DNA of 63,666 nucleotides, counting the filler, from Reclinomonas americana ATCC 50394 (Eukaryota), in the NCBI GenBank assembly GCA_048213135.1. It is 12 parts of 12 records of this genome, joined end to end, with 100 filler letters (N's around TTAATTAATTAA, not from the genome) between each part and the next. Parts side by side here need not be neighbours in the genome. Positions count along the whole stretch, not along the records: positions 1 to 6,948 come from AFZH01019524.1; 11 more parts are not named here. One strand, written 5' to 3'. Under the pieces are notes generated by a model. It saw only the letters and a list, made by a program, of their open reading frames with translations, was not told the origin of the DNA and made no database searches. This document shows, piece after piece, positions 782 to 2,994 of this stretch. The position numbers and the translations under genes were made by a program. The first letter of the stretch is position 1. Every line of letters starts with the position of its first letter.

Positions 782-1406
782 ATGTCGCATCACGGTGACA
801 ATGGAGTCGGCGCTGGCTCCGGTTCCAGTGCATCCAACATGATCTTCAACCCTCGAGAGTGAGTTGATTGTGTACGTGTGTACCGATCGCGTTGGTGTGA
901 TCGCGTGCGATCAGGCAATCATGACGTCGACGCCACTAACATCCCATTCTCTCTCCGCTCTTCCTCTTCTCCACAGTCCATCCACAGCACGACGCATTCG
1001 ACTGGAGCGCTGCCTCAGTTGCATGCTCGTCGTGCTCCGCAAGCTTGTGCATATAATTCTCCACGTCGATCCGCCGCCACCGGTGGCTGGCGTGGCGTTT
1101 GACCCGCGTCAGTGGCTTCTGGATCCTCTCCCTCCACCGTACGTACTGCACTGTACAATGCACCATGTGTACATGCGTCCGGATTGTCAACATCATTGTT
1201 GTGCCCTGTCACAGTTACCGTGGACCCGGTGGAGCACGTGTCCGCTTCGCTGGCGCCGAGGCTCGTGCACGTTTCGAGGCCTACCTAAACAATCCTGCAG
1301 TACATCGATGCAACGACTGGGACCTCACCCTCGTGTGCAGCGTGCTGCGCTTCGGCTGCTTTGACGGCCGCCGACTCGCCGGTGATGCTGTGGTGAGTGA
1401 TGGAAT

Positions 1407-1440
<34 letters not shown>

Positions 1441-2994
1441 ATGGGAAAAAGACGATGAGGAAAGAGACTTACATCGCATCCTCCCTCTCACTTGTGCAGG
1501 CCGACGCGGCCGAGATATTGCAAGCGGTACGCAACGAGCTGTTTCACGACACTGATCGTCGTGGGCGACATGTAGCCGGTGAGACCGAGTACAACAAGCA
1601 CAGCTTGGAGATTGTTCGCGGCCTCAGCGTGCTCGAAGAGCCCGTGGTACACATGCGACGAGTGGCGCAGATGCAAAATCGCGTGGAGTTGATGGCATTG
1701 TGCGATTCAGTCGAACGCAACATGAGGCGATCGCAACGCTGGTTGGACTTAAACGGTACATCTCCGAAACCGCTGACTTTCTGTCATGACTGCGAACCCA
1801 CTGGGACTCACCGCCACTCGCAACGCAGTGGATATTTTCCAGGAAGATCAACAGCCCGCACCTGCTGGCGATCTGCAGAACGCCAACATTTTTGAGGAGC
1901 AGAACCTTGAGCCGTATCCGCAACTTGACGCACAGGATCAGCCACCAGTCGTGCCACAGTTGCTGCCGCCACCGCAAGCGCAGTACATGCAGCCGGCGCA
2001 GCCAATAGCCCAACCATACAATGCGGGTGCCTACGGCCACAGGCCTGCCTATGCTCCTCACGGTCAGTAATGGTTGCCTCCATCTTTGCAGCTGAGCAGG
2101 CACTTACCGTACTGCTTGTTCTTTGTCACCTTGCAATTGTGATACGCAGATGCATACAATGGCGTCCGTCCTCCGCCGCTTCCACCTCTACACGGCCAGC
2201 CGCTGCTCGTTGCTCCTCCTGCGAACCAGCCGGTACCTCATCCAGGGTCAGTGAACCACGAGCGCCCACCGCTCTCACTCGATCGTGAGTCTCTTGACAG
2301 GATGCGTTACTCCAGTGCGGCTGCAGCGGGCAACTATCGAGTGGGGTATGCTCCCGATGATCCGGATCTGGCAACCGAGCGTCTCGAATCCTACGCACTG
2401 GCACAGGATCCATTCTCGTCAGCCTTCATCCCAATGGGAGGGGCACCGCCGCCGTTGCCACCAGTGCCGCGTTTAGACAATCGACCCTTGCCTCCCGTGG
2501 GAATTCCAGTTGGCCCAAACCTCGCCAACCAGGCGCGGGTATCCATTTTCTCCTTGGCCAATCTCTGCTGCTGCGGCATGGACGGCGCACCCAAGGCCGT
2601 GCGTGTGCTCCGCTGGACCGCGGCATTCTTCTTCTTCCTGTTCTTCATCGGCGCCTGCATCCTCTTCGGCGGTGAGATAGCGGGAGCGGCCGTCGGCGGA
2701 GCCGGAGCCTCGGTGCACGCCCTGTGCATTCTTGTGCTCTTCTTCTGCGACTGCTCAGCGGCGGCCAATGCCAACGACCCTGGCGCCAACCGACGGTCGT
2801 GGTACTGGCTGCTGCTGAACTGGGTGACCACTCTCCTCACCTTCATCTTCTGTGTGGTCGTTCTCTCTGTCGTTGGCTCTACGAAGCTAGGCGACGCCTA
2901 CATCGCTATCTATATGGGGTGCATCTTCGTTCCCATTTTCGCCATCCTGCCACTTCTCGGCTCCTCCATCTATCGCTGCTACAAGTTGTGCTGA
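782..2994 (+). CDS. HEPN-domain (DZIP3/Swt1-like) protein with Pro/Gln-rich linker and C-terminal 4-TM region; 6 exons
   Basis: Phase-consistent GT-AG model: 782-858, 977-1138, 1215-1392, 1500-1755, 1829-2062, 2150-2994. Contains WDLTLVCSVL and RNELFH (Rx4H, 1530-1547). Four hydrophobic segments follow LCCC in the last exon. Confidence 0.72.

Follow-up and report, generated by a model that had tools for sequence, protein, structure and literature searches.

A predicted four-pass membrane protein of Reclinomonas americana with a candidate HEPN-type N-terminal domain

The DNA analysed here, called the window, is a stretch of 63,666 nucleotides (nt; filler included) from Reclinomonas americana ATCC 50394 (GenBank assembly GCA_048213135.1), and the plus strand at 782–2994 supports one coherent six-exon gene model. 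Its product, referred to below as the target, is supported by its sequence and by structure prediction as a polytopic, four-pass membrane protein with a non-membrane N-terminal part. The reading that we tentatively favour is that of one real gene whose product holds a cytosolic, probably divergent HEPN-type domain on a four-pass anchor and may be a membrane RNase. The anatomy proposed in a preliminary description of the gene proved largely right; its HEPN interpretation is a reasonable hypothesis, which failed every profile-level test applied. At present, the target is an orphan: a membrane protein whose motif is suggestive.

Gene model and membrane part

The six exons, all on the plus strand and joined by their coordinates, give a coding sequence of 1752 nt for 583 amino acids, which contains a single, terminal stop codon. 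The five introns (118, 76, 107, 73 and 87 nt) are all of the GT..AG type and all five end in a CAG acceptor. Exon 1 (782–858) starts with the ATG at 782–784, which lies 36 nt downstream of an in-frame TGA (746–748), and has its best codon score in the model frame; it is followed by intron 1 (859–976, GTGAGT...CAG). Exon 2 (977–1138) encodes a segment free of proline and glycine (residues 28–57) and then a proline-rich loop with the string FDPRQWL (residues 67–73), and intron 2 (1139–1214, GTACGT...CAG) separates it from exon 3 (1215–1392). The latter contains EARAR (residues 95–99), the CNDWDLTLVCSVLRFG block (residues 112–127) and DGRRL (residues 130–134), and it is where the best local match to the NACHT-WD40 N-termini discussed below begins. 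Beyond intron 3 (1393–1499, GTGAGT...CAG, with a (GA)n run inside), exon 4 (1500–1755) encodes the remainder of the N-terminal domain, including RNELFH at 1530–1547. Intron 4 (1756–1828, GTACAT...CAG) leads to exon 5 (1829–2062), where a Pro/Ala/Gln-rich linker starts, and intron 5 (2063–2149, GTCAGT...CAG) leads to exon 6, the first part of which (2150–2592) encodes the remainder of the linker and a short helix with a CCC cluster (residues 435–446), and the second part (2593–2988) the four long hydrophobic helices. The stop codon is the TGA at 2992–2994.

The coding character of this model was assessed with a codon table trained on the Pfam-supported open reading frames (ORFs) elsewhere in the window, the three forward frames being compared for each exon. 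The model frame had the best codon log-odds in all six exons, the highest value being that of exon 4 (0.335 bits per codon) and the lowest that of exon 2 (−0.015). At the first, second and third codon positions, the GC content is 0.68, 0.47 and 0.65, respectively, compared with 0.65, 0.47 and 0.66 in the Pfam-supported ORFs. The exons have a GC content of 56–63% and the introns of 48–58%, lower in each case than that of the flanking exons. A tblastn search within the window found no second copy of the target.

The preliminary description held that ORFs that look separate join in phase into one gene, and that an intron at 2063–2149 removes an apparent stop. Both statements held, since the joined exons form an open frame of 583 residues and the TAA at 2068–2070 lies inside the intron, between its GTCAGT donor and its CAG acceptor. 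This junction (2062/2150) is also where the model could be wrong: the gene could be two genes, one encoding a soluble protein of ~303 residues that ends at that TAA and the other a membrane protein starting from an in-frame ATG near 2302, or other splice sites could place the motif part and the membrane part on separate polypeptides. The splice junctions are predicted from the sequence, 22 GT..AG pairs keep the frame open across this one, and exon 2 has almost no codon signal, though its model frame scores best of the three. Against such a misassignment, which we regard as improbable, the two genes would have only ~230 nt between the TAA and the second start, and the Pro/Tyr/Ala-rich composition runs on across the junction. 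Moreover, 2063–2149 is the shortest of the 22 open pairs, has the best consensus and alone has a length in the range of the other introns of the model, and its GC content is 48%, compared with 59–61% in the exons that flank it.

The linker comprises 210 residues (225–434), 20.5% of which are proline. The C-terminal part contains four hydrophobic stretches in the Kyte–Doolittle profile, all within residues 452–579, and a single-sequence AlphaFold2 model of the membrane part, of low confidence (mean predicted local distance difference test, pLDDT, 54.5), shows four long helices at residues 451–479, 483–510, 518–546 and 550–582, preceded by the short helix with the CCC cluster. The two predictions agree and support the four transmembrane helices put forward in the preliminary description. 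Counted flank by flank and loop by loop along the chain, lysine and arginine residues number 3, 0, 2, 1 and 2, that is, seven on the proposed cytosolic side and one on the other side. These counts fit an N-in/C-in arrangement, so that in the predicted topology both termini and the N-terminal domain face the cytosol. The outer loops are ~3–8 residues long, too short to form an obvious extracytoplasmic or lumenal sensor.

No relative of the membrane part was found. Exon 6 matched no Pfam family at E ≤ 10, known four-transmembrane families included; those that we took to be candidates were MARVEL, tetraspanin, claudin-like and MS4A, none of which matched. A Foldseek search of the PDB with the low-confidence model (pLDDT 54.5) returned 0 matches at E ≤ 0.001, a comparison with proteins of 95–305 residues gave no relative among 556 candidates, and the best ESM Atlas score of 0.85 was below the usable level and pointed to no family.

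The N-terminal domain and the NACHT-WD40 N-termini

Residues 1–27 are Gly/Ser-rich, and with no hydrophobic stretch among the first 30 residues, nothing there looks like a signal peptide. The region that follows (residues ~28–224) appears helical: six segments of 13–43 residues without proline or glycine are split by Pro/Gly-rich loops. The canonical RNxxxH motif attributed to this domain is present as RNELFH at residues 150–155, an Rx4H motif with asparagine after the arginine. In the available sections of PMC3710099, HEPN domains are marked by an Rx4-6H motif, which closes helix-3 and has N, D or H, a polar residue, directly following its arginine, and often by an upstream acidic residue in helix-2, typically within Ex3[KR]. 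RNELFH has the Rx4-6H form and the polar residue. It is found late in the Pro/Gly-free segment of residues 137–160, just before a Gly/charge-rich loop (DTDRRGRHVAG), a placement compatible with the “end of helix-3, start of the loop to helix-4” of the same sections, as judged from the segments, which are not a reliable secondary structure. Upstream of it, EARAR, of the form Ex3R, is a candidate for the acidic motif, and in a MAFFT alignment its glutamate is aligned with a glutamate in both NACHT-WD40 proteins of the window. The HEPN identity of the domain is a hypothesis at the level of the motif, and it stays at that level because the searches of curated profiles covered the domain (residues 26–226) exon piece by exon piece. 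As a separate observation, a PPPY sequence of the PPxY type occurs in one of the Pro-rich loops (residues 78–81; 1131–1138 and 1215–1218), across the exon 2/3 junction; PPxY-type motifs can bind WW domains.

The two NACHT-WD40 proteins provide the comparison on which the claim of a shared domain was built. All 22 runs of N in the window make up 11 identical linkers of 100 nt, each composed of N44, TTAATTAATTAA and N44, with TTAATTAATTAA providing a stop in all six frames (6949–7048, 13527–13626, 19240–19339, 29157–29256, 34565–34664, 39567–39666, 41177–41276, 44112–44211, 47101–47200, 48763–48862 and 59884–59983). The window thus strings together 12 pieces that were assembled separately and whose order may be artificial. 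The target gene is on the first piece (1–6948), and the NACHT-WD40 genes are on two others (44212–47100 and 48863–59883). The first of these genes (44342–47100) is cut by the end of its piece at 47100 and encodes a NACHT domain (PF05729, E 5e-10) plus WD40 repeats; the second (55189–59259, plus strand) has twelve WD40 stretches (Pfam WD40, E 1e-128) and its product is 80% identical to that of the first over residues 1–757, the NACHT region included. Both are real NLR-like NACHT-WD40 genes, and tblastn within the window found no third NACHT gene. Their N-terminal 254 residues, encoded at 44357–45118 and 55189–55950 (both on the plus strand), are 74% identical, and they carry RKGLVH, as in the second copy, which served as the comparison domain, or RKGLAH, with RK where the target has RN. 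Between the NACHT and WD40 regions, at residues ~690–740, both proteins contain a run that resembles pentapeptide repeats (GADLR, GVNL, EADFR), a name that we assume for it and that is not among the 25 Pfam rows listed.

The preliminary description had paired five strings of the target with strings of the NLR-type N-terminus by eye. Four of the five pairs are present and co-linear (FDPRQWL/FDVRAWV, CNDWDLTLVCSVLRFG/CDGFDTTAL..., DGRRL/DGRKL and AAEILQAVRNELFH/...KVRKGLVH), and the fifth fell away, since VARRINYNR occurs in none of the six frames. The actual text in the second NACHT-WD40 gene is DDRRINYNRM, located 5′ of the first methionine of that ORF, and the first copy reads INSQRINMAF. Formal comparisons gave a marginal signal. 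The Smith–Waterman score against the second copy is 55 (z 5.1), which none of 500 shuffles reached, and that against the first copy is 44 (z 2.7), which 8 of 500 reached. A two-sequence hidden Markov model gave 3.4 bits, equalled by 10 of 2000 shuffles. MAFFT alignment yielded 51 identities, compared with 39.3 ± 6.5 in shuffles (2 of 200 reached it), and 45 triple-identical columns, compared with 32.9 ± 5.3 (0 of 200), and hhalign returned a P value of 0.0062 but a probability of 6%. All methods with a signal choose the same block, from a Cys-x-x-[WF]-D helix to R[NK]xLxH. Four related tests thus place the similarity at ~0.002–0.02 relative to shuffles, only marginally above chance, and on these sequence comparisons homology of the target N-terminus to the NACHT-WD40 N-termini appears about evenly balanced. 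The pairwise and profile alignments that had been proposed as a check therefore gave a marginal signal and no BLASTP or family-profile match, and the assignment of both domains to the same HEPN family comes close to the outcome that the preliminary description itself had named as its refutation.

Relatives were also looked for outside the window. Word-indexed searches gave none for exon 4 among 137 candidates of longer proteins and none for the NACHT-WD40 N-terminal region among 2798 candidates. ESM Atlas returned no usable match with exon 4. No relatives were found when metagenome contigs were scanned with exon 4 and the NACHT-WD40 N-termini, viral contigs with exon 4, the membrane part and the NACHT-WD40 N-termini, or prokaryotic genome contigs with exon 4. 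The target is best explained, from these sequence searches, as an orphan, lineage-restricted protein. When 1.84 billion representatives were searched by HMMER, the one match to the two NACHT-WD40 N-termini was a bacterial protein of 995 residues with ~ten identical repeats; it was matched in 10 short stretches and was rejected as a repeat artefact.

A number of results weigh against a HEPN-type domain tethered to the membrane. The domain is split over exons 2–4, and the family and fold searches were run on unspliced exon-encoded pieces, each holding part of it; with the pieces of exons 2, 3, 4, 5 and 6 taken singly, Pfam gave no family at E ≤ 10, PF18738 included. At the same threshold, PADLOC and NCBIfam gave no match to the exon pieces, and a PDB sequence search with exon 4 gave 0 matches. 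The contiguous NACHT-WD40 N-termini matched no Pfam family either, HEPN included, and no PDB sequence at E ≤ 10, and the AlphaFold2 model of this region is unusable (pLDDT 37.8). BLASTP found no match between the target and the NACHT-WD40 N-terminal domains, the hhalign probability is low, the shuffle tests are mutually dependent, and the pair was picked by eye from a 63-kb window. Translated in six frames, the window yields 127,328 residues and eight instances of RNxxxH, a number of chance occurrences that makes the motif alone uninformative. The collections searched hold no relatives with which conservation of the motif could be assessed; expression and splicing of the target are inferred from its sequence; and the separate pieces and artificial linkers mean that the neighbourhood of the target and the NACHT-WD40 genes cannot be assumed. 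HEPN membership, as first claimed, finds no match in Pfam, NCBIfam, PADLOC or the PDB sequences at E ≤ 10, with either the exon pieces or the NACHT-WD40 N-termini. Since the latter also match no family or structure, the label “NLR HEPN domain” is equally unproven.

Some further results belong to these searches. Two of the seven other RNxxxH sites were inspected (near 15903 and 23520), and they lie in short or low-complexity frames without a coding look. The C6orf70/DUF4209 profile gave no Pfam match on any exon piece, and a complex prediction in which exons 2, 3 and 4 each supplied one chain, run to see if they would pack into a single domain, scored 0.02, compared with a mark of 0.34. In the unusable model of the NACHT-WD40 N-terminus, helix 123–138 ends at RKGLVH (134–139). 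Two rows obtained with the NACHT-WD40 N-termini in the PADLOC/NCBIfam search, Hp2 (E 0.036) and YaaA (E 0.2), were rejected as being at chance level.

These results bear most directly on the possibility that the target is an orphan membrane protein with a chance motif, its N-terminus, helical or in part disordered, being specific to the lineage and having no kinship with HEPN domains or with the NACHT-WD40 N-termini, and RNELFH and the resemblance over ~50 residues being coincidence. Such an origin would explain why no part of the protein has a family, structure or database relative, and it is in line with the empty BLASTP search, the 6% hhalign probability, the z value of only 2.7 against the first NACHT-WD40 copy (8 of 500 shuffles), the eight occurrences of RNxxxH in the six-frame translation and the choice of the match by eye from 63 kb. 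It accounts less well for the agreement of four similarity tests on one co-linear block, in the upper 0.2–2% of shuffles, and for a motif that is equally placed in both kinds of protein, at the position expected of HEPN domains. We consider coincidence somewhat unlikely.

Possible roles and known systems

In the tentatively favoured reading, the 583-residue protein would cross the membrane four times with both ends in the cytosol, and the 210-residue proline-rich tether would keep the α-helical N-terminal domain (residues ~28–224) at the membrane surface. This domain would most likely be a very divergent HEPN-type domain of DZIP3/hRUL138-like pattern, judging from the order of its elements: the acidic/hydrophobic helix DWDLTLVCSVLRF is separated by a loop from a second helix, which has RNELFH at its end, and another loop and more helices come after it. 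Distant kinship of the domain with the NACHT-WD40 N-terminal effector domains is also probable. HEPN enzymes generally build their active site by pairing two Rx4-6H motifs. If the domain is HEPN, its RN...H site would by analogy form a membrane-anchored, metal-independent endoribonuclease once two domains pair, and its activity would depend on clustering in the membrane.

The likeness to DZIP3-like HEPN domains includes the helix-loop-helix pattern that ends in RNxxxH, as compared with what we take to be the family consensus, and the presence in one genome of a candidate HEPN-like domain both on NACHT-repeat proteins and on a separate gene. In the sections available of PMC9646362, DZIP3-like HEPN domains are N-terminal on NACHT proteins of the pearl oyster, a bivalve, with many HEPN-only genes in the same regions, and Table 1 of PMC3710099, also available in part, lists DZIP3/hRUL138-like HEPN domains with NACHT for several animal lineages and Capsaspora. 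In animals, the domain (PF18738) occurs both at the N-terminus of NACHT proteins and in NACHT-less genes, with expansions in the oyster, Nematostella and Capsaspora. Its commonest form is Rx4H with asparagine after the arginine (PMC9646362, PMC3710099). Unlike the animal cases, the host here is not an animal, to judge also by its gene structure and the absence of database relatives, and PF18738 has no match at E ≤ 10 in the exon pieces or in the NACHT-WD40 N-termini. The architectures covered in the sections available of these two papers do not include HEPN with a four-pass anchor at the C-terminus, no literature search having been aimed at this combination.

A loose analogy to IRE1 had been suggested in the preliminary description. 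It stands as an architectural likeness, the target resembling the KEN RNases Ire1 and RNase L and C6orf70 (DUF4209), HEPN proteins of the eukaryotic ER membrane, in a predicted cytosolic Rx4-6H domain held at the membrane. Ire1 and C6orf70 are given in the available part of PMC3710099 as eukaryotic, single-pass, membrane-associated HEPN proteins for which RNA cleavage at the membrane surface has been proposed. The target has instead a C-terminal four-helix bundle with very short outer loops, and the lumenal sensor, the kinase and the circularly permuted KEN domain of Ire1 were not detected in it (Pfam, exon pieces, E ≤ 10), so the analogy does not extend to these domains. Bacterial fusions of HEPN to transmembrane helices, which are DUF4145-like or Abi2/Swt1-like, include two-transmembrane forms and are linked to defence (PMC3710099, same part), and the Cas13b accessory protein Csx28 likewise have an HEPN or HEPN-like domain on the cytoplasmic face of a membrane protein. 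They differ in being prokaryotic, with one or two transmembrane helices, and the PADLOC and NCBIfam searches were negative for the target pieces; Csx28, moreover, acts as a pore and not as an RNase (10.1101/2021.11.02.466367, in part).

In a different possible role, the target would not be catalytic: its N-terminus would be a homotypic module that is recruited or clustered by activated NACHT-WD40 oligomers, leaving the effector function, such as permeabilising the membrane, to the four-helix part, by a logic like that of NWD2/HET-S in fungi or Csx28 in bacteria. The sole detectable resemblance of the domain is to NLR-type N-termini, and NLR N-terminal domains commonly recur on downstream partners, NWD2/HET-S being an example (PMC3321046 and PMC4344463, in part). 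Csx28 is the precedent for a HEPN-like membrane protein that is a pore (10.1101/2021.11.02.466367, in part), and the NACHT-WD40 copies carry RK, not RN, so catalysis is not obviously the conserved property. On the other side, this role rests on a homology that is roughly evenly balanced and on genes that lie on different assembly pieces, their physical linkage being unproven, and the target retains the fuller catalytic-type motif (RN...H); we judge it unlikely. In NWD2/HET-S, as described in the same portions of PMC3321046 and PMC4344463, a NACHT-WD40 receptor is homologous in its N-terminus to part of a membrane-targeting executioner, and one short N-terminal or terminal region is thereby common to both partners, as would be the case here. 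The fungal shared region is a 21-residue amyloid motif and the genes are adjacent, whereas the putative shared helical domain here would be of ~170–200 residues, with marginal homology and unproven adjacency.

A more far-reaching proposal makes the target an executioner that resides in the membrane and serves an NLR pathway of a protist. The NACHT-WD40 sensors, with a degenerate (RK), HEPN-derived copy of the domain, would on activation recruit, like with like, the catalytically intact RN...H copy on its four-helix membrane anchor and nucleate it for RNA cleavage at the membrane or for permeabilisation. We hold this to be very unlikely. If it were true, it would describe a eukaryotic NLR-to-membrane-HEPN module for death or defence outside animals, fungi and plants. 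The related earlier claim, that the target is an active partner for the NLR HEPN domains, leaned also on a co-location that is unproven, as the genes sit on different assembly pieces. For the favoured reading, a true HEPN domain would make the target a new eukaryotic architecture, with HEPN on a C-terminal four-pass anchor, and a non-animal case of an effector-type domain of NACHT-repeat proteins that is also present on a separate membrane protein. It would have a bearing on the way in which HEPN RNases and NLR-type immunity came together in microbial eukaryotes.

Other genes of the window

In character, the window resembles nuclear DNA from a microbial eukaryote: its GC content is 55%, its GT..AG introns are short, (GA)n/(CT)n runs are numerous, and there are long ORFs with WD40 repeats. 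On the plus strand upstream of the target, 2–292 is the open 3′ end of another gene; it is Tyr/Glu/Val-rich, matches no Pfam family and ends ~490 nt before the target ATG. Further WD40-repeat ORFs without NACHT are found on the plus strand at 7128–8609, 8916–10079, 10386–11255, 12003–12848 and 13758–15119, and on the minus strand at 52772–53914 and 61105–62382 (Pfam WD40 E-values of 1e-13 to 1e-80). The two minus-strand ORFs have a similar tail after the repeats, VVLRCFVLEDAEV and VVMRCFMVEEAQV, respectively, and the bases right 3′ of the linker, at 13627 on the plus strand, seem on a hand reading to encode the similar IVLRCFLVE. The shared tail may be a recurrent short C-terminal module of these WD40 proteins.

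An ORF at 32724–33389 (plus strand) encodes ankyrin repeats (Ank_2, E 1.4e-15). A Cys/His-rich stretch at 49808–50704 (plus strand) has a weak match to zf_UBZ (E 6e-4), under the curated cut-off, and the next ORF (50746–51339, plus strand) matches no Pfam family and has a coiled-coil look by eye; together, the two may form a zinc-finger adaptor gene.

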